A stretch of 64,000 nucleotides of DNA, from contig CAWGSA010000001.1 in assembly GCA_963825175.1 (NCBI GenBank), forward strand, positions 1,116,706 through 1,180,705. The letters are read 5' to 3'. The notes under the pieces were generated by a model. That model searched no databases and was not told where the DNA came from. It saw only the letters and a program-made list of their open reading frames with translations. Below, piece by piece: positions 6,036 through 58,656 of the stretch (position 1 is its first letter; every line of letters begins with the position of its first letter). Both the position numbers and the translations under genes were made by a program. The stretch comes from an uncultured Acidobacteriota bacterium (GTDB lineage: Bacteria; Acidobacteriota; Thermoanaerobaculia; UBA5066; Gp7-AA6).

Positions 6036-6113
6036 TGACGTGCGACGTTCTAAGTTCTACGTTCTACGTGTGGCGTTTCTACGTGCTCCCAACTTAGAAC
6101 GTCGCACCCGTCA
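6036..6113. terminator. about 21-bp inverted repeat spanning the spacer between convergent genes; putative bidirectional terminator
   Basis: The arm TGACGTGCGACGTTCTAAGTT at 6036-6056 is complementary to AACTTAGAACGTCGCACCCGTCA at 6091-6113 with a 2-nt bulge. The loop contains GTTCTACGT three times. The right arm includes the stop codon of the methyltransferase gene. Confidence 0.45.
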
Positions 6114-9235: not shown

Positions 9236-10873
9236 CTAATCATAAATTCCGTCGGAGAACCAGGCGTCGCTCCGGCGATCCCGGTAGATGCGGTACAGGG
9301 CTCCGTCGGAGAGCTCCACGTCCCAATAGTCGCGTCGATCGGGGGAATCGGACCACCATTCCTCCTCCATGAACCAGGGACCGGCGGCGACTTTGACGGC
9401 GCCGGCAATGCGTGGGACCGCGTCGGGCGCGCGCGTCTTCAAGGACACGGGACGGGAAAAAGGAGACGGGGAGACGGGGAGACGGGGGGTCGGGGGGTCG
9501 GAAGGGGACGCGGGGACCTGAGGGCGGGGAGCTGAAGCCTGAGGACCCAGAGGGTCTGCCACGATCACCTCCAGCTCGACGGGCGGGCGCAGGACGCGCA
9601 CGGCGAGAAGGCCGTGGCCCGTCTTGCCCTGCGAGGGAAAGACGGGAGGTGGCGCGGGCTCGTAGCTCGCCAGCGCGAAACGCTCGGGCCGGTGGCCTTC
9701 GACGGCGCGCGGGGAGCCGATGCGGTCGGCGCCGAGCATCGCGGCCAGGCGTGCGATGGTTGTGGCCAGGCGGTCGGAGGAAAGCGCGGGCGGTCCGAAG
9801 AGGGCGAGCTGCGCGCGGCGGGGACGATCGGGATGCGCGGCGAAGGTGAAACCGGCGACGGGCGAGCCGGGAGGCCGCGCGTCGAGCTCCAGGCGCACGA
9901 GGGTCAGGAGCGTCTTGACGTCGCGCGTGGGAGCGGGAAGCCGGATGGCGCGCGCGTCGCAGCCGTCGGGATCGAGCTTCAACGTCACTTCCAGGCGCGT
10001 GCAGGCCAGGGCCTGCGACTCCAGCCGCCGCATCAGCCTCTCCAGGGCGGCATTGCCCACGAAGAGGAAGGGCTCGAGCGCGACGAGCGGCCACTCCAGA
10101 TCCATCCCTTCGGAGAAGGAGAGCGCCGGAAAGCGCGGCTCGAGCGGACGCGGATCGATGCCCCGGGCGGTCGCGTGGAGCGCCCGGCCGATCTCTCCCA
10201 GGCGGCTGGCGACCTCGCCTTCCGGAAGCCTGGCGAAATCGCCGATCGTGCCGAGTCCCCAGCGCGCGAGCGTCTCTGCGATCTCCAGGGCCGGCGCCAG
10301 GCGCGCGAGCGGAAGCGGCGCCAGAAAAGACGCCTCTTCTCCAGCGGGGACGACGGTCGGTGATCGCGCCAGGCTCGCGGCGACGCGGGCGGAGAGCTTG
10401 GAGCTGGCGATTCCGACGCGGGCCGGCAAGGAGTTTTTGTCGGCGCAAGCCCGAATCTCGCGGCCGAGACGGAGCTCGGCGTCGGGCTCGGACGGGGGGA
10501 CGGGGAGACGGGGGGACGGGGGGAGGAGCGCCGGGATTCCGTCCAGGTCGATGTAGACGATGCCCTCGCCGCCGTCCTCGACGCGCGGAGAGTAAGACTC
10601 GGCGATCTCGAGAAGCGCTTCCTGAGCCGAGCGCTCGCTCTCGCTATCGCGGGGGCGCGCGACGAGCTGGGGCAGGATGGCCCGCGACTGCGGGAGCGTC
10701 ATCCCGACCTCGATCCCGGCCTTGCGCGCCGGGCGCGTGGCGGCGACGACCCGGGCGGCGTTGCCGTTGCCCTCGCAGACGACGACCGCCTCCCCCTTCA
10801 GATCCGGTTCGCTCCTCAGCCGCGCGGCCAGCGGAAAGAGGGGAACGCAGAGACAGGCGAGGCGGGCCGGCAT
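9236..10873 (-). CDS. imuB: ImuB-like Y-family DNA polymerase (mutagenesis cassette protein)
   Basis: Start MPARLACLCVPLFPLAARL..., then EGNGNAARVVAA and GMTLPQSRAI (UmuC/ImuB N-terminal domain). ATG complement at 10871-10873, 1 nt after the imuA stop. Confidence 0.7.
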   Translation of the reverse strand: MPARLACLCVPLFPLAARLRSEPDLKGEAVVVCEGNGNAARVVAATRPARKAGIEVGMTLPQSRAILPQLVARPRDSESERSAQEALLEIAESYSPRVEDGGEGIVYIDLDGIPALLPPSPRLPVPPSEPDAELRLGREIRACADKNSLPARVGIASSKLSARVAASLARSPTVVPAGEEASFLAPLPLARLAPALEIAETLARWGLGTIGDFARLPEGEVASRLGEIGRALHATARGIDPRPLEPRFPALSFSEGMDLEWPLVALEPFLFVGNAALERLMRRLESQALACTRLEVTLKLDPDGCDARAIRLPAPTRDVKTLLTLVRLELDARPPGSPVAGFTFAAHPDRPRRAQLALFGPPALSSDRLATTIARLAAMLGADRIGSPRAVEGHRPERFALASYEPAPPPVFPSQGKTGHGLLAVRVLRPPVELEVIVADPLGPQASAPRPQVPASPSDPPTPRLPVSPSPFSRPVSLKTRAPDAVPRIAGAVKVAAGPWFMEEEWWSDSPDRRDYWDVELSDGALYRIYRDRRSDAWFSDGIYD

Positions 10874-10874
10874 C

Positions 10875-11765
10875 TCACGCACCGCGGGTGATCCGGGCGG
10901 ATGGCCCATCGGTCATCGGGTGATCGCAGCGTGATCGCAGCGTGATCGGGTGATCGAAAGAAGGCGCGCTCGCCGGGGGAGACGGAAAACACCCGAGCGT
11001 GAGTGGCGCGGATCGGCCGGAGGCCACGCGGCCGAGCTTCTCGAGTGTCAGGCGCGAGAAGAGACCGAAGAGAAGACGCGGCCCTCGTGTGCTCCCCCGC
11101 CAGACCGGACGCGCGGCGCCGGCGGCGACCACGGCGTCGGCGGCGATCCCGCTCATGCGGTAGGGGGTGAGAAGCAGGAGCGTCGATTCCTGGGCGGCAA
11201 CCGCCCGGGAGAGACGGACCCAGGCCGCGTCGGGCACGAATCGGCCGCCGCGCGGCGAGAGACCCATGTCGGCAACGACCAGGCGAAAGCCCGTCGACAG
11301 GAGCATCTCCGCCGCGGAGAGCGCTTCCTGGACCTTGCGGGGACGCACCCACAGCAGACGCGTCAGATCGACGCCGACAGACTCGGCCGCCTGGGGATCG
11401 AAAGCCCCTCCCAGGTCGACGAGCGCCGCGTCCTGGCCGCTTCCCGTCGCCGAGGCCAGGGCCGCGACCGCGATCGAAAAACGGCCGGCCGATCGCGCCC
11501 CCACGATCTCGACCAGCTTCGAGTCGGGAAGCCCGCCCAGAAGAGCGTCGAGGGGCGAGCGGGTCGGCAGCGCCGCCTGGGAGCACGCGGCCGCCGCCGG
11601 AAGGTCGCGAGCGCGCAGGAGCCGGGCGCCGGAGCCGGACAGCAGGGTCCCGTTCGGCTTTTTCGTGAAGCCGCGTCCGGCGAGAAATTGCTCCAGCGCG
11701 AGAGCTTGTGCAGTCGCCATTGAGGACAAGACCTCGATCCCCGCGTCGGGCAGGGAGATGCACAT
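10875..11765 (-). CDS. imuA: ImuA-like RecA/SulA-fold protein
   Basis: The pattern ...LVEIVGARSAGRFSIAVAALASATGSGQDAALVDLGGAFD matches ImuA/SulA-like proteins. Immediately upstream of and same orientation as imuB. The C-terminal 25 aa are encoded by a tandem repeat array, so the true stop is uncertain. Alternative start M16 at 11720. Confidence 0.6.
   Translation of the reverse strand: MCISLPDAGIEVLSSMATAQALALEQFLAGRGFTKKPNGTLLSGSGARLLRARDLPAAAACSQAALPTRSPLDALLGGLPDSKLVEIVGARSAGRFSIAVAALASATGSGQDAALVDLGGAFDPQAAESVGVDLTRLLWVRPRKVQEALSAAEMLLSTGFRLVVADMGLSPRGGRFVPDAAWVRLSRAVAAQESTLLLLTPYRMSGIAADAVVAAGAARPVWRGSTRGPRLLFGLFSRLTLEKLGRVASGRSAPLTLGCFPSPPASAPSFDHPITLRSRCDHPMTDGPSARITRGA
10899..10955. 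repeat. tandem array of GTGATCG(CAGC) motifs at the imuA 3' end
   Basis: CATCGGTCATCGGGTGATCGCAGCGTGATCGCAGCGTGATCGGGTGATCG. Same motif family as the array at 25447-25560. Confidence 0.65.
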
Positions 11766-24228: not shown

Positions 24229-25446
24229 ATGAAGAAAAAGCGTTGGATCTGGATCACCGTCGGCGCCCTGGTCGTGGGAGGCGCCTTCGTCGCCGCGCGC
24301 GGGAGGGACAAGGCCGATCCGAAGGAGAAGGCGAGTCCGTTCCGGCTCGGAAAGGTCCAGCAGGAAGACCTGCAGGTTTCCGTCCGCGAGGTCGGCGTGG
24401 TCGATCCGGTCACGAAGGTCGACGTCAAGTCCGCCGTCTCCGGGCGCGTTATCTCGCTGCGGGTGCGCGAGGGCGCGGTGGTCAAGACCGGCGACGTGCT
24501 GGCGGAAGTCGAACCGGACGTCAACCAGGCCCAGACCCTCTCCGACACCCAGGCCGGGCTGACCCAGGCGGAACTGAAGCTCCAGGACGCCGAACGCGAG
24601 TACGGAATGCAGAAGGCGCTCTTCGACCAGGGGCTTCTGGGAAGCGACGCGTTCAAACAGGTCAAGAACGCCCACGAACAGGCGGTCGAAGCGTTGAAGG
24701 CGGCCAGGATGCGCTACCAGATCGTCGAAGACCGCGGTATTCCGATTTCCGGGAGCGCCGCTTCGCAGAACGCGCGCGTGACCTCGCCGATGTCGGGGGT
24801 GGTGATCAAGAAGGGTGTGGAGCTGGGCGAGACGGTCACCTCCGGCGTCTCCTCCTTCAACGCGGGGACGGTGCTCTTCACCGTGGCGGACCTGAAGTCG
24901 CTCATCATCCGCGTCAACTTGAACGAGGTCGACATCGCCAAGGTCCACGTGGGCCAACCGGTGCGCATCACGCTCGACGCCTATCCCCAGAAGGTCTTCA
25001 CCGGACGCGTGAGCTTCGTGGCTCCCTCCGCCGATCTGGTCGAGAAGATCAAGGTCTTCAAGGTCGAAGTGACGCTCGATCAGCTCGCCGACGCCTTCAA
25101 GACCGGAATGACCGCCAACGTCGAGATCCTCGGCGAGAAGCGGGACAAGGCGGTCTCGATCCCGCTCGAGGCTCTGCAGAAGCGCGACGGGCAGACCATC
25201 GTCTATAAGTTGAAGGATGGCCTGAAGCCGCAGCAGATCGCCGCGGCCAAGGACGGCCTCTCCGGCCGCAACAAGTTCATCTGGCTCTCCGATCACTGGA
25301 AGGAATACTTCGATGTCGCTCCGGTCAACGCCGGCATCGCCACGCTCGAGCGCATCGAGATCCTCTCGGGCGTCAAGCCCGGCCAGCAGGTCTGCCTCGA
25401 AGACCCGACCAAGAAGAAGGTCGAGAAGGACGACGACACGGACTAA
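24229..25446 (+). CDS. efflux transporter periplasmic adaptor subunit (HlyD/MacA family)
   Basis: N-terminal TM, then lipoyl/beta-barrel motifs (KVDVKSAVSGRVISLRVREGAVVKTGDVLAEVEPD). ATG verified at 24229. Confidence 0.8.
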   Translation: MKKKRWIWITVGALVVGGAFVAARGRDKADPKEKASPFRLGKVQQEDLQVSVREVGVVDPVTKVDVKSAVSGRVISLRVREGAVVKTGDVLAEVEPDVNQAQTLSDTQAGLTQAELKLQDAEREYGMQKALFDQGLLGSDAFKQVKNAHEQAVEALKAARMRYQIVEDRGIPISGSAASQNARVTSPMSGVVIKKGVELGETVTSGVSSFNAGTVLFTVADLKSLIIRVNLNEVDIAKVHVGQPVRITLDAYPQKVFTGRVSFVAPSADLVEKIKVFKVEVTLDQLADAFKTGMTANVEILGEKRDKAVSIPLEALQKRDGQTIVYKLKDGLKPQQIAAAKDGLSGRNKFIWLSDHWKEYFDVAPVNAGIATLERIEILSGVKPGQQVCLEDPTKKKVEKDDDTD

Positions 25447-25560
25447 GGGAATCGGGTGATCGCAGCGGGATCGGGTGATCGCAGCGGGATCGGGTGATCG
25501 CAGCGAGATCTCAGGTCACCGGTCGCCGATCACGCTGCGCTCCCGTTGCGATCATGCTGC
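25447..25560. repeat. intra-operon spacer array: 3 direct copies of GGGATCGGGTGATCGCAGC followed by 2 inverted partial copies
   Basis: gggaatcgggtgatcgcagcgggatcgggtgatcgcagcgggatcgggtgatcgcagcgagatc...gccgatcacgctgcg...gcgatcatgctgcgat, read directly. Confidence 0.75.
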
Positions 25561-25578
25561 GATTCGGAAGAGCGAGCC

Positions 25579-26259
<681 letters not shown>

Positions 26260-26261
26260 GG

Positions 26262-26338
26262 AAATCGGATCATCGGTTCATCGGCTCATCGACTCATCGG
26301 CCCCTCGTCGAGCCGCAATCGACCGCTGGACCGATCGA
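26262..26338. repeat. spacer array of YCATCGG heptamers (4-5 direct copies) followed by inverted CCGATNG copies
   Basis: atcggatcatcggttcatcggctcatcgactcatcgg...gaccgatcgaccgatggaccgattcc. Confidence 0.7.
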
Positions 26339-26341
26339 CCG

Positions 26342-27601
26342 ATGGACCGATTCCCCATGACCGGCGCTTTCACCGAGCGCGTCCGCAATGCGTGGGTCGA
26401 GATGCGGGAGAACCTCGGCCGCGCCACCCTCCAGTCGCTCGGCGTGATGCTGGGAGTGGCCTCCGTCCTCGGGGGCTTCTCCATTTCCGACAGCCAGAGA
26501 AAACGCGCCGACGAGCTCTACATCCGCTTGGGCGGTCTGGACAAGTTGAACGTCCAGCCCTCCGCAGTGATCAAAGACGGCCAGCCCACGGCGCTGCAGA
26601 TGGCCAATCTCGGACTGCGCCGCGACGATGCCGACGAGGGACAGGGGCTCGACACCAAGGCGGTCAGCGGGGTCAGCCAGCAGAAATTCTTCCGGGCGCG
26701 GGTCCGGTCTCCCCAGGCCGACCAGGAGCGCCCGATCATCGGGATCGGAGGGGACTACCTTCCGATGGACGGCTACGCCATCGCGCGCGGGCGCGCCTTC
26801 ACCGCGGAGGACCTCGCGTCCGCCGCGCCGGTGGCCGTGCTGGGGACCGAGGCCGTGGAGACGTTCTTTCCCGACGGCCACGCTGTCGGCAAGACCCTGC
26901 GCGTCGGGGACACGCCGGTCCAGGTCGTGGGCGTCCTGCAGGAGCGCGTCTTTCGGTTTCGCAACTCGGGCCGCAACATCTTTCGCCGACGCAACCGCGT
27001 CATCGCGCTGCCGTCCACGCTGGTGGCGCGCCGGTTCCAGGGAGACCAGTATCACCGCCTCGACCGGGTGACGTTTCGCATCCGCGACCTGAACGCGATG
27101 GCGATCTTCTCCAAGAGCCTCTCGTCGATGTTGAAGGCGAACCACCGCCAGCAGGATGATTTCCGGCTGGACGACGTCGCGGCGCGGGTGCGCAAGGAGC
27201 AGAGCCAGGGCGACATCTACAACATCATCTTCATGCTCTCCGGCGTGCTCTCCCTGATCGGCGGAGGGCTGGTCAACGTCAACATCCAGATGGCGACGTT
27301 GAAGGAACGGGTCCGCGAGGTGGGCGTGAAGATGGCGATCGGCGCCTCGGGCCGCGAGGTCTTCAAGGAGTTCATGACCGAGGCGCTTCTCTTGACGGGG
27401 TTGGGCGGCGCCGTGGGGCTGGGCCTGGGAATCGCGTTTTCCAAGATCATCACCGCGTCGCTCGGAATCCCCCTGTTCATGCAGGGCAAGAGCTTCCTGT
27501 GGGCGTACTTCCTGGCCTCGGTCTTCGGCTTCTTCTTCGCGCTGTACCCGGCCTTCAAGGCCAGCCGCCTCTCTCCGATGGAGGCGCTGCACTATGAGTG
27601 A
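26342..27601 (+). CDS. ABC transporter permease (FtsX/MacB family)
   Basis: N-terminal TM, large periplasmic domain, and a C-terminal 3-TM FtsX domain. Starts MDRFPM. Confidence 0.75.
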   Translation: MDRFPMTGAFTERVRNAWVEMRENLGRATLQSLGVMLGVASVLGGFSISDSQRKRADELYIRLGGLDKLNVQPSAVIKDGQPTALQMANLGLRRDDADEGQGLDTKAVSGVSQQKFFRARVRSPQADQERPIIGIGGDYLPMDGYAIARGRAFTAEDLASAAPVAVLGTEAVETFFPDGHAVGKTLRVGDTPVQVVGVLQERVFRFRNSGRNIFRRRNRVIALPSTLVARRFQGDQYHRLDRVTFRIRDLNAMAIFSKSLSSMLKANHRQQDDFRLDDVAARVRKEQSQGDIYNIIFMLSGVLSLIGGGLVNVNIQMATLKERVREVGVKMAIGASGREVFKEFMTEALLLTGLGGAVGLGLGIAFSKIITASLGIPLFMQGKSFLWAYFLASVFGFFFALYPAFKASRLSPMEALHYE

Positions 27602-27813
27602 GGGAGGGATCGGTTTATCGGTTCATCGGTCCATCGGATCATTTGCCCGGATGGAGCGACCCCAGCCGAGATCAACCGATGAACCGATGGATAAATGGAC
27701 CGATTCCAGGGAGGGATCGGTTTATCGGTTCATCGGTCCATCGGATCATTTGCCCGGATGGAGCGACCCCAGCCGAGATCAACCGATGAACCGATGGATA
27801 AATGGACCGATTC
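27600..27813. repeat. perfect tandem duplication of a 107-bp unit built from CATCGG / CCGATG modules
   Basis: GGGAGGGATCGGTTTATCGGTTCATCGGTCCATCGGATCATTTGCCCGGATGGAGCGACCCCAGCCGAGATCAACCGATGAACCGATGGATAAATGGACCGATTCC occurs twice, at 27600-27706 and 27707-27813. The second copy runs into the start of the next gene. Confidence 0.85.
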
Positions 27814-29112
27814 CCCATGAGTAGCCTCGCCGTCCCCGCCGCCACACCGGCCGTCGAACGCCCCGTGCGTCGTCTGGGCATCCGCCAGCATCTCGCTCTG
27901 TACGGCGAGGTCGTGCGCGGGGGGTTCGTCGAGCTGTGGGCGCACAAGCTGCGGTCGACGCTGACGCTGACGCTTCTGATGCTCGGCGTCTTCGCGCTGG
28001 TCGTCATGACCTCGGTCCTCGACGGCGTGATGGACAAGATCGCGACGGGTTTTTCCGGCATGAGCTGGGATGGGACGATCCAGGTGTCGCCCAAGAGCCC
28101 GGAGACGACCGAGGAGCAGAAGCGGTTCGCCATGAGTCCCGGCCTGCGCTACGAGGATCTGTCCCGAATCGCCGCGCCGCATCCCAAGGTCCTCGGGTAC
28201 ATCCCGCGGGCCCAGAAGACTTCCGCCGTCCGCGTCGCCGGCGGCAGCGAGCGCATGTTCGTGATGGGCGTGAGGCACGATTACGCCAGCCTGATGAACC
28301 GGCCCATCGGACTGGGCCGGGGACTGACCGAGGACGACGAGCGCCGCCACTCGACCGTCGCCGTGGTCGGCGCGACCCTGGCCTCCAAGCTCTTCGGCGG
28401 TTCCGACCCCGTTGGGCGCGACATCACGGTCGAAGGGGTCCCGTTTCGCGTCGTCGGCGTCCAGGCGCCGGGGCAGCTCTTCTCCGACGAGAACTGGTAC
28501 GACGCCAACGGAATCCAGATTCCGCTCGAGACGTACATGGACCGGATCGATCCGGACCACAAGCTCGCGCAGCTCTCCGTCAAATTGAAGAAGAAGAAGG
28601 ATCTGGGCGAAGTCTCGGCGATGCTCCTGGCGCGGACCCGGGAGGCCCACCACGGGATCGAAGACGTGGAGATCGTGGACCTGGAAGCCGAGGGCGCCCG
28701 CTCCTGGCAGAACTTCCTGAACCAGATGCACGGATGGACGGTCGTCCTGATGAGCCTGGCCGGGACGGTTCTCTTAGTCGGAGGCGTGGGGATCCTGTCG
28801 GTCATGCTCATCTCGTTCTCCGACCGGCGCTACGAGATCGGCTTGCGCAAGGCCATGGGCGCGTCCGACGGGGAGGTGTTCGTGCAGTTTCTCCTGGAGG
28901 CGTGCGTGCTCGCGGCGGTCGGGGCCTCGGTCGGAACGTTCTTCGGATGGGGCCTTTGCACCGCTCTCGCCTCCAAGTTCCCGTACGGGCTGGTGGTCAA
29001 TCCCGTCGGTCTCGTCGTGGCATGGGGCTCGGCGCTCCTTCTGGCCGTCGTCTTCGGCATGTATCCGGCCGTGCGCGCGTCGCGGCTGTCGCCGATGGAG
29101 GCGATGAGGTAA
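27802..29112 (+). CDS. ABC transporter permease (FtsX/MacB family), second copy
   Basis: Same architecture as the 26342 gene. Also starts MDRFPM, preceded by the identical ggaccgattccccatga leader. Confidence 0.75.
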   Translation: MDRFPMSSLAVPAATPAVERPVRRLGIRQHLALYGEVVRGGFVELWAHKLRSTLTLTLLMLGVFALVVMTSVLDGVMDKIATGFSGMSWDGTIQVSPKSPETTEEQKRFAMSPGLRYEDLSRIAAPHPKVLGYIPRAQKTSAVRVAGGSERMFVMGVRHDYASLMNRPIGLGRGLTEDDERRHSTVAVVGATLASKLFGGSDPVGRDITVEGVPFRVVGVQAPGQLFSDENWYDANGIQIPLETYMDRIDPDHKLAQLSVKLKKKKDLGEVSAMLLARTREAHHGIEDVEIVDLEAEGARSWQNFLNQMHGWTVVLMSLAGTVLLVGGVGILSVMLISFSDRRYEIGLRKAMGASDGEVFVQFLLEACVLAAVGASVGTFFGWGLCTALASKFPYGLVVNPVGLVVAWGSALLLAVVFGMYPAVRASRLSPMEAMR

Positions 29113-40058: not shown

Positions 40059-40095
40059 ATCGTGAGGCGTGAGGCGTTAGGCGTGAGGCGGAAGA
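40059..40095. repeat. spacer array of GGCGTGAGG nonamers
   Basis: gatcgtgaggcgtgaggcgttaggcgtgaggcgg. Reverse-complement family of the array at 58596-58656. Confidence 0.65.
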
Positions 40096-54288: not shown

Positions 54289-54371
54289 GCGAGGCGGATT
54301 GTATGACCTGGGACGCGGGGATGAAGGACTCGGTCCTTAAGACCGAGGACCGCGGACGGAGGACCGGGGAC

Positions 54372-58595: not shown

Positions 58596-58656
58596 GTCTC
58601 CGCCTCACGCCTCACGCCTTACGCCTCTCGCCTTACGCCTTACGCCTTACGCCCTT
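58596..58656. repeat. array of about 6 CCTCACGCC / CCTTACGCC nonamers abutting the stop codon of the DUF4097 gene
   Basis: cgcctcacgcctcacgccttacgcctctcgccttacgccttacgccttacgccc. Confidence 0.7.

Follow-up and report, generated by a model that had tools for sequence, protein, structure and literature searches.

In a 64,000-nt stretch of DNA from an uncultured Acidobacteriota bacterium (contig CAWGSA010000001.1; the whole stretch is called the window below), the spacer between the adaptor and ATPase genes of a MacAB-like transporter operon is occupied at 25447-25566 by a repeat element. We regard this element, with a probability of roughly 0.6, as one copy of a lineage-wide and fast-evolving foldback family in a Thermoanaerobaculia-like (Acidobacteriota) genome, and as a derivative, devoid of an open reading frame (ORF), of elements of the intervening-sequence (IVS) type. 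Elements of this design consist of a tandem array of 3-6 units (7, 8 or 11 nt each), a short loop and an inverted array. Comparison of related sequences shows that they are gained and lost within a few bases of stop codons, that their copy number changes, and that their arms change together yet remain complementary; it also shows one family at different junctions, gene-bearing relatives and an internally deleted intermediate.

A foldback element in the adaptor/ATPase spacer

The window (68.8% G+C) carries on its plus strand a MacAB-like operon of four genes, encoding an HlyD-type adaptor, an ABC ATPase and two MacB/FtsX permeases, which were recognized from Pfam matches and ORFs. The operon and its repeats are laid out as follows (TRF, Tandem Repeats Finder; SD, Shine-Dalgarno).

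24229-25446, plus strand: periplasmic adaptor (membrane-fusion protein) gene; Pfam HlyD_D23/HlyD_3; identical to the 405-aa protein P0001
25447-25566, plus strand: foldback element of the adaptor/ATPase spacer, from the sequence; hairpin of -62.3 kcal/mol; 85% identity to the element of locus L169
25451-25507, plus strand: direct array of 3 x 19 nt, ATCGGGTG + ATCGCAGCGGG; a 17-mer is perfect three times
25526-25542 and 25547-25563, plus strand: 3' arm, made up of the inverted partial copies CCGATCACGCTGCGCTC and TGCGATCATGCTGCGAT; inverted-repeat pairs, TRF period 11
25567-25578, plus strand: retained ancestral spacer with SD-like GAAGAGCGAGCC; equals the whole spacer of element-free orthologues; unpaired
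25579-26259, plus strand: ABC ATPase gene; Pfam ABC_tran 2.6e-33; start ATG 25579
26260-26356, plus strand: foldback of the ATPase/permease-1 spacer; 5 x ATCGGNNC (26264-26303), loop, four inverted octamers (26318-26351)
26342/26357-27601, plus strand: MacB/FtsX permease 1 (Pfam, ORFs)
27602-27708, plus strand: foldback copy 1 of the permease-1/permease-2 spacer; 4 x ATCGGNNN, loop, inverted octamers; z -4.4
27709-27815, plus strand: foldback copy 2, the 107-nt element repeated in perfect tandem; TRF period 107, 2.0 copies, 100% matches
27802/27817-29112, plus strand: MacB/FtsX permease 2 (Pfam, ORFs)

The adaptor gene ends with the TAA at 25444-25446 and the ATPase gene starts with the ATG at 25579, as an earlier sequence-only reading had placed them, leaving a spacer of 132 nt. 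That reading had described three perfect 19-bp direct repeats followed by two inverted partial copies. The inverted copies are there, but the 19-mer GGGATCGGGTGATCGCAGC is perfect only twice, the first copy being GGAATCGGGTGATCGCAGC with one mismatch (GGAATC...); what recurs perfectly three times is the 17-mer ATCGGGTGATCGCAGCG, at 25451, 25470 and 25489. TRF reports a period of 19 with 3.2 copies and 97% matches at 25451-25510. With a fourth exact copy at 10915, the 17-mer occurs at only two loci within the 64 kb, against 0.01 copies expected; this count, together with a fold that beats dinucleotide shuffles, excludes chance. TGA triplets at 25457, 25476 and 25495 close all three frames of the array, and the ends of the element read GGGAATCGG...CGATTC. 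The repeat is thus, as first suggested, more than a plain microsatellite, namely a structured direct-plus-inverted repeat exactly at the cistron junction.

Folding of 25447-25566 gave a minimum free energy (MFE) of -62.3 kcal/mol, with z = -3.1 for the sense strand and -4.2 for the antisense strand against dinucleotide shuffles. Each inverted copy can pair over 15-20 nt, at 80-88% complementarity, with whichever of the three direct copies, so alternative pairing registers are physically possible, and the MFE structure makes up only 0.003 of the ensemble. The alternative hairpins that had been proposed right at the ribosome-binding region are thus possible as registers of one long hairpin, but this hairpin extends only to about 25566, upstream of the SD-like stretch, which takes no part in the pairing; the purine-rich GGAAGAGCGAGCC and the ATG at 25579 are outside the stem and unpaired in both the MFE and the centroid folds.

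All three operon spacers share the design of direct array, loop and inverted array. The suggestion that they also share a motif needs amending, since GATCGCAGCG is missing from the other two spacers, which hold arrays of a related octamer, ATCGGNNN, with inverted copies (26264-26351 and 27609-27811). Unit lengths in the three operon elements are 8, 11 and 19 nt. The hairpins of the window comprise about 30-40 pairs and are more stable than shuffles on both strands, with z from -2.5 to -4.4; the element at 26260-26356, for instance, scores -2.5 (sense) and -4.1 (antisense). The complete identity of the two tandem copies of the 107-nt element implies a very recent duplication. Promoter-like or terminator-like sites were not found in any of the three spacers, nor does a T-run follow the hairpin, which would fit co-transcription of the operon. 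Rfam gave no match at gathering score in the window and none at E<=1 in 25300-27950, and the window holds no rRNA.

The permease genes show several features of their own at the edge of these elements. An identical 18-mer, ATGGACCGATTCCCCATG, precedes both (26342-26359 and 27802-27819), and the 3' arm of the element gives each an in-frame upstream ATG that adds MDRFP-. The gap between element and start has no room for an SD sequence; SD-like GAGGAA and GGGAGGG stand at the 5' foot of the permease-side hairpins (26260, 27602), with the ATG 2-5 nt past the 3' foot. A split ribosome-binding site bridged by the stem may be conceived here as a candidate only, and the G-rich sequence of the 5' foot seems to belong to the element itself.

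Gain, loss and replacement at orthologous junctions

Adaptor homologues at 74-93% identity are labelled Thermoanaerobaculia or Acidobacteriota by their sources. We assembled orthologous loci, four fetched by exact protein look-up and 80 from metagenomes, and extracted 75 adaptor/ATPase spacers, 62 of them distinct. These spacers are either essentially empty (0-15 nt, including an overlapping TGATG) or filled with a foldback of 75-185 nt; 16 of the distinct ones measure at most 30 nt and 45 at least 60 nt. At least eight unit families of 7-11 nt occupy this one junction: TCAGTTN, CAGCTNN, TAGGTGN, CAGGTNT, ATCGGGTG/GATCGCAGCG, ATCGGNTC, CATTGAAT and GATTTCG. Close relatives have empty spacers (L163, L174, L175 and L180), of 8-14 nt in L163 (8 nt) and L174 (tgaTCGGCGGAGCGAGCatg). 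The whole empty spacers of L174 (TCGGCGGAGCGAGC) and L180 (GAGTCGAAGCAG) match both 25567-25578 of the window and the 3' flank of filled spacers. Filled spacers thus retain the empty-spacer sequence, SD-like GGAG included, on the 3' side of the element, which places the element after the stop codon and before the ribosome-binding site.

In a neighbour-joining tree of the adaptors, unit families track clades only partly, and empty and differently filled junctions are interleaved. Copy number, whose comparison among strains had been proposed, does vary between relatives within the window's own family, with three units in the window and two in L001 (93% amino acid identity) and L161.

More distant orthologues (L189, L190, L198, L201, L203, L213 and L225) have another long palindrome at the adaptor/ATPase junction, GTCATCCCGAGCGAAGCGAGGGATCC...GGATCCCTCGTCGCT..GGGATGAC, and L191 and L207 a further type, CCCTCTCCC...GGGAGAGGG. 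The 25-nt ATPase/permease-1 spacer of L162, CCACCTGCACGCGC..., has a single CCACCTG, and next to it the 3' flank that is found behind the CACCTAN array where a PF05635-bearing element (described below) is present; this unit is either a deletion footprint or an array seed.

Arms that change in concert and elements that recur

The two arms gain and lose units independently of each other in L168, L171 and L173, a mark of slippage. Six elements that share the 5' flank GCCGAG reveal a second kind of change: four successive heptads have U-A pairs in L166 and L159 and C-G pairs in L168, L171, L172 and L178, and the alignment shows double changes in 6 of 25 predicted pairs. A change has thus spread along one arm and onto the other.

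Whole elements are recognizable at different junctions. The ATPase/permease-1 and permease-1/permease-2 elements of the window are each 80% identical, loop included, to the adaptor/ATPase element of L176 and 72-78% identical to the L184 element, and the adaptor/ATPase elements of the window and of L169, which sit at corresponding junctions, share 85% identity across 98 aligned nt. The 11-mer family also occurs at non-orthologous loci of other Acidobacteriota metagenome-assembled genomes (MAGs; L054, L076, L105, L122, L126 and L147), once inside an imuB linker. A genome motif scan gave qualitative enrichment in Acidobacteriota MAGs among the matches listed (at least 120, mostly chance singletons). 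A viral origin was rejected, as the scan of viral contigs returned 34 singletons, which is chance level.

Arrays were located by TRF and by local alignment to their flanks, because self-blastn missed even the elements of the window. Our census covered 681 kb of clade DNA and counted arrays of period 6-12 with at least 2.8 copies, and inverted partners within 130 nt scoring at least 15. It yielded 312 arrays, period 7 being dominant with 157 (141 of them non-coding), and 94 arrays had an inverted partner above the threshold, against a control 95th percentile of 11. Where a gene end lay nearby, 64 of 91 arrays began between -10 and +9 nt from the stop codon, with a mode of 0-4 nt. One operon is over-represented in the sample, so the counts characterize the phenomenon and are not genome-wide rates.

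Two candidate rules were dropped. A 5' arm richer in G/T than the 3' arm is a tendency only, being found in 29 of 41 foldback elements, and a "stop-codon trap", in which units would place stops in all three sense frames, is contradicted by a count of 21 sense against 21 antisense. Separately, the TAGGTGA/AGGTGAT unit (L162-L167, L239, L246, L256) would be complementary to the 3' end of 16S rRNA as in E. coli (AUCACCU, extended SD pairing), and its inverted arm would mimic the anti-SD; GGTGATC at 25455-25461 of the window would fit the same region.

Gene-bearing relatives and the PF05635 link

The ATPase/permease-1 spacers of seven orthologous loci (L169, L170, L182, L218, L181, L206 and L216) are 424-613 nt long and contain a TAGGTGN array, an ORF and a CACCTAN array. 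The ORF encodes about 120-135 aa and matches PF05635, the 23S rRNA intervening-sequence protein family (E 3e-27), with a weak match to bAvd. L172 and L173 hold a 335-nt, internally deleted copy in which residues 34-102 are gone, and short foldbacks of the TAGGTGN family have the same loop ends as the full copies, TAGGGAC...CCCTAC. A loose alignment, through GGTGAT(C/A)G units and the loop motif GACCGGAGC, connects the ATCGGGTG, TAGGTGN and CAGGTNT elements of the adaptor/ATPase junction.

The protein has homologues, annotated "four helix bundle protein", at 65-70% identity in different phyla. We sampled 23 PF05635 genes, from Thermoanaerobaculia, KSB1, an AT-rich organism (HNH / IVP / TrpRS), a 38%-GC organism and 13 cyanobacterial plasmids, and found 17 of them bracketed by an upstream array and an inverted downstream array. 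The bracketing units are specific to the element (TAGGTNN, GGAGTCA, GGGAGTA, GGGTGTA, GGCAGGG, AAGGGAA). One 50-kb Nostoc stretch has a single inverted array pair spaced 300-700 nt apart; this pair encloses the PF05635 gene, and 0 of the 47 other annotated features is so bracketed. All 23 plasmid matches to PF05635 are cyanobacterial.

Several single cases accompany these counts. In most PF05635 elements whose flanks were read, the G-rich arm is upstream of the ORF. On Nostoc edaphicum pNe_5 (L271 44433-44923), a PF05635 element lies antisense between nrdA and nrdB, and 4 kb away (L271 48929-49010) is a short foldback without ORF whose unit, AGGGAGT, is the same; long and short forms are thus paired in cyanobacteria as well. 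On the Pseudanabaena galeata plasmid pPg_01 (L267), the PF05635 gene sits between cas6 and cas4, with (AAAAGCT)x11 upstream and (AAAAGCC)x9 downstream, which are direct and not inverted. In L242 (2501-4126), which comes from the same sample as L001, the closest relative of the window, an IS256-family transposase gene directly follows the PF05635 gene in place of the 3' heptamer array.

We consider it possible, though doubtful, that inverted heptamer arrays and PF05635 (Avd-like, pentameric) together make up one widespread, unrecognized class of self-propagating stem-loop elements that would include IVSs, the short tandemly repeated repetitive (STRR) and TAACTGA repeats and the operon foldbacks. 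The protein would recognize the units, and the copies in the window would be forms without ORF that settle at stop codons and, via RNase III, cut operon transcripts into pieces of separate stability.

Likeness to known systems

IVSs resemble the window elements in having a long stem made by inverted termini, in existing with and without an ORF, and in being inserted in a transcribed region. They are known with an S23p ORF from Coxiella, Leptospira and Xanthomonas and are cut by RNase III. Relatives of the window hold PF05635 between inverted heptamer arrays in the corresponding operon. The Coxiella 23S IVS is an RNase III-excised stem-loop that carries an S23p ORF and whose stem contains heptameric direct repeats in variable number (PMC4990558). 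The window units measure 8, 11 and 19 nt, and sister elements at the same junctions use 7-nt units. In contrast to IVSs, which reside in helix 25 or 45 of 23S rRNA, the window copies carry no ORF and are found between the cistrons of a transporter mRNA.

Repetitive extragenic palindromic (REP) sequences and their composites, the bacterial interspersed mosaic elements (BIMEs) and REPINs, are also short extragenic palindromes in operons and after genes, with clustered direct and inverted copies; like the window family, REPs vary in presence between relatives and form mRNA hairpins. The REP hairpin is a known stabilizer of the upstream cistron and a barrier to 3' exonucleases. The arms of the window elements differ in being tandem arrays of 7-11-nt units, and in belonging to many unit families as opposed to one or few. 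No REP head (GTAG or CGTC) was found in the three operon spacers, and no RAYT transposase was seen.

Miniature inverted-repeat transposable elements (MITEs) and foldback transposons are, like the window elements, short, non-autonomous and almost entirely terminal inverted repeat, with arms of tandem sub-repeats; the Drosophila FB elements have inverted termini of short tandem repeats. Their short forms relate to longer gene-bearing forms through deletion intermediates, as L172 and L173 do among the relatives of the window. They differ in that neither a target-site duplication nor a transposase was identified here, and PF05635, the gene of the longer copies, is not known as a transposase.

Heptamer repeats of the STRR type are already known from cyanobacteria. 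Together with the TAACTGA repeats of Beggiatoaceae, Cyanobacteria and Bacteroidetes, they are intergenic tandem heptamers near start and stop codons, like the arrays of the clade, and Nostoc plasmids hold foldbacks and array-bracketed PF05635 genes as the Acidobacteriota relatives do. The descriptions of these repeats that we consulted do not make the link to PF05635, and about half of the arrays found here have inverted pairing. The TAACTGA repeats were described as direct, with one indirect repeat reported in BOGUAY (PMC4679880), and their heptamer is that of the TCAGTTN/AACTGAN family of operon spacers. Mycobacterial interspersed repetitive units (MIRUs) are tandem repeats in operon spacers with copy-number polymorphism as well, but their units measure 46-101 bp and contain small ORFs overlapping the flanking stop and start, whereas those of the window are 7-19 nt long and have an inverted partner; a small bridging ORF is ruled out by the TGA in all three frames of the direct array.

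In its action the window element is comparable to a REP/BIME hairpin and in its appearance to a foldback MITE, and its nearest relatives by descent seem to be the IVS-type PF05635 elements. From each class it departs in defining features: it has no GTAG/CGTC head, no target-site duplication or transposase was identified, it has no ORF, and it lies outside rRNA. We found no account of foldback heptamer arrays in Acidobacteriota or of heptamer bracketing of PF05635 in a literature search that did not cover the older cyanobacterial work on STRR and small dispersed repeats, so any claim to novelty is made with caution.

A proposed mode of upkeep and its alternatives

We propose that the window copies are MITE- or REP-like derivatives, devoid of an ORF, of IVS-type stem-loop elements. 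They would be maintained mainly at the DNA level, by slippage and by template switching or conversion from arm to arm, with occasional copying of elements to new sites. Co-transcribed with the operon, the element would place an imperfect hairpin of 30-40 bp in the mRNA just 3' of the adaptor cistron. By analogy with both IVSs and REP sequences, the hairpin is probably a processing site or stability barrier that lets the adaptor and pump segments of the mRNA decay independently; this RNA effect would be a generic side effect and not a tuned switch.

A hairpin selected as an intercistronic RNA element, which would stabilize or separate the adaptor mRNA and so provide more adaptor than pump, with the repeats merely building the stem, is the main rival explanation, unlikely but deserving serious weight. 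REP hairpins in malE-malF and intercistronic hairpins in the puf and pap operons are precedents, and a higher need for adaptor would fit the MacA:MacB stoichiometry of 6:2. Distinct spacers of at least 60 nt are found in 45/62 cases at the adaptor/ATPase junction, compared with 21/47 at ATPase/permease-1 and 10/43 at permease-1/permease-2; unrelated palindromes (GTCATCCCGAG..., CCCTCTCCC...GGGAGAGGG) take the same place in the more distant orthologues; pairing is kept through concerted compensatory changes; and the SD-like stretch and start codon stay free. A sense-strand RNA signature, however, was looked for in 13 and then 30 operon elements, by MFE and by G-U pairs, and is missing: among the 30, the sense strand folds better in 9 and the antisense strand in 20 (Wilcoxon p = 0.15), with 61 G-U pairs in sense against 70 in antisense. 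We therefore do not claim selection at the RNA level, and the constraint that keeps the arms complementary looks strand-symmetric, that is, DNA-level or mechanistic. Selection of the hairpin is further opposed by the empty spacers of the close relatives L163, L174, L175 and L180, by elements after last genes, between convergent genes and in coding linkers, and by arm copy numbers that vary independently (L168, L171, L173).

A local, neutral microsatellite, grown in place by slippage out of a stop-codon seed like TGATCGG, immobile and without a family, is improbable. In its favour, relatives differ in copy number, array starts coincide with or adjoin stop codons, L174 has an empty spacer whose first letters, tgaTCGG, resemble the core of the unit, and there are direct-only arrays at 40061, 54337 and 58601. 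Slippage, however, does not create an inverted array, and whole elements including their loops are 80-85% identical across junctions and genomes. The exact 17-mer is found again at imuA, at a distance of 14.5 kb, other MAGs have 11-mer arrays at unrelated loci, and longer copies enclose a conserved gene.

The sequence-only reading had favoured post-transcriptional control at cistron junctions, with phase-variable expression as a possibility. A dedicated control device at the ribosome-binding region is not supported: spacers are empty in close relatives, the unit sequence is replaced between relatives, and there is no sense-strand stability advantage. A translational attenuator whose hairpins mask the ATPase ribosome-binding site, or a switch toggled by copy number, now appears very improbable, despite the alternative registers, the MFE share of 0.003 and the copy-number variation. 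In MFE and centroid folds the stem includes neither the SD-like stretch nor the ATG. None of the three spacers has the GC-rich hairpin with a T-run of an intrinsic terminator or attenuator, and TGA in all three frames excludes a MIRU-type bridging ORF. Phase variation is unlikely because the array is outside any coding frame and outside the spacing of the SD-like stretch to the ATG: a contingency locus would have its tract elsewhere than between the stop codon and the SD-like stretch, where SD-ATG distance is unaffected, and there is no promoter-like site.

A DNA-level array of protein-binding sites, putatively a GATC cluster for methylation-dependent binding or a set of iteron-like sites, is hardly credible although 8 GATC sites fall within the 120 nt of 25447-25566 and a strand-symmetric signal fits a DNA-level role, given that GATC is missing from most sister families (TCAGTTN, TAGGTGN, CAGCTNN and others) although they agree in architecture and position, that a 7-8 bp period mismatches the helical repeat, and that no candidate binding protein is encoded nearby. 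GATC is common throughout the window, with 599 sites, about three times the expectation from base composition alone.

The reading as a mobile foldback family with IVS-type ancestry has several points to its disadvantage. The PF05635 gene is absent from the 64-kb window by both tblastn and hidden Markov model searches, and none of the ORF-bearing elements found has GATCGCAGCG or ATCGG arms, so the IVS link is built on architecture, shared junctions, a deletion series from another family and the loose alignment. The units of the window are 8, 11 and 19 nt long, not 7. Comparison of empty and filled sites yielded no consistent target-site duplication, a possible GTCGA in L160 being the sole hint, and we know of no transposase or other mobilizing enzyme for the foldbacks, so that ectopic gene conversion could account for the "mobility" instead. 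That the adaptor/ATPase junction is so often filled could mean that the hairpin is selected and not merely tolerated, and cleavage of the window hairpin by RNase III, or its blocking of exonucleases, is pure analogy.

Other arrays in the window

Beyond the operon, the window contains further arrays, among them the following.

6040-6107, no strand assigned: hairpin with ACGTTCT heptamers between convergent genes
10911-10957, minus strand: direct-only array, related to the adaptor/ATPase element as a family member, in the 3' coding tail of imuA, in the stop-free orientation; includes the fourth exact 17-mer (10915-10931)
40061-40090, plus strand: direct-only heptamer array of the TGAGGCG type, beginning 2 nt past a stop codon; a further instance of the general phenomenon
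54337-54371, minus strand: intercistronic spacer built wholly of GTCCNCG heptamers, direct-only
58601-58653, minus strand: direct-only heptamer array, TAAGGCG/TGAGGCG on the minus strand, beginning at the stop codon of a minus-strand gene

The arrays at 40061-40090 and 58601-58653 share the heptamer TGAGGCG/TAAGGCG in sense orientation after unrelated genes, with no inverted partner.

A related string had been reported at the junction of imuA and imuB, and it does exist, at 10920-10956. It is not part of a spacer: both genes, imuA (RecA-like) and imuB (IMS family), are on the minus strand, and the string belongs to the coding tail of imuA. The array at 10911-10957 has no inverted partner and lies within the imuA frame, where it adds a C-terminal tail, FDHPITLRSRCDHPMTDGP, to the protein; ImuA of L002 and of L003 has no such tail. 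The array is thus a coding insertion and not a junction signal. Its orientation is the sole stop-free one, as three copies in the GTGATCGCAGC orientation put TGA in all three frames, and the stops that the units carry in all three sense frames account for that choice. Elsewhere in imuB, period-8 arrays (GGAGACGG at 9462-9495 and GGACGGGG at 10490-10524, minus strand) lie in coding proline/serine-rich linkers, and the imuB linker of another Thermoanaerobaculia MAG (L147 3270-3330) holds a GATCGCAGCG array instead. The repeats thus also remodel disordered parts of proteins.

Implications

If the foldback reading is right, much of the intergenic DNA of Thermoanaerobaculia, a soil lineage that has been little studied, would consist of turnover-prone hairpin elements and not of promoter or regulator sequence. 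The annotation of spacers, start codons and small ORFs would change accordingly; in the window, two permeases would gain an upstream ATG and imuA a tail. The operon would offer a concrete case of palindrome arms that evolve in concert, four heptads together, and processing sites would be predicted between adaptor and pump cistrons. The common and unexplained "four helix bundle protein"/S23p gene would be tied to inverted heptamer arrays in several phyla, which would make its function, perhaps the binding of such arrays, testable.

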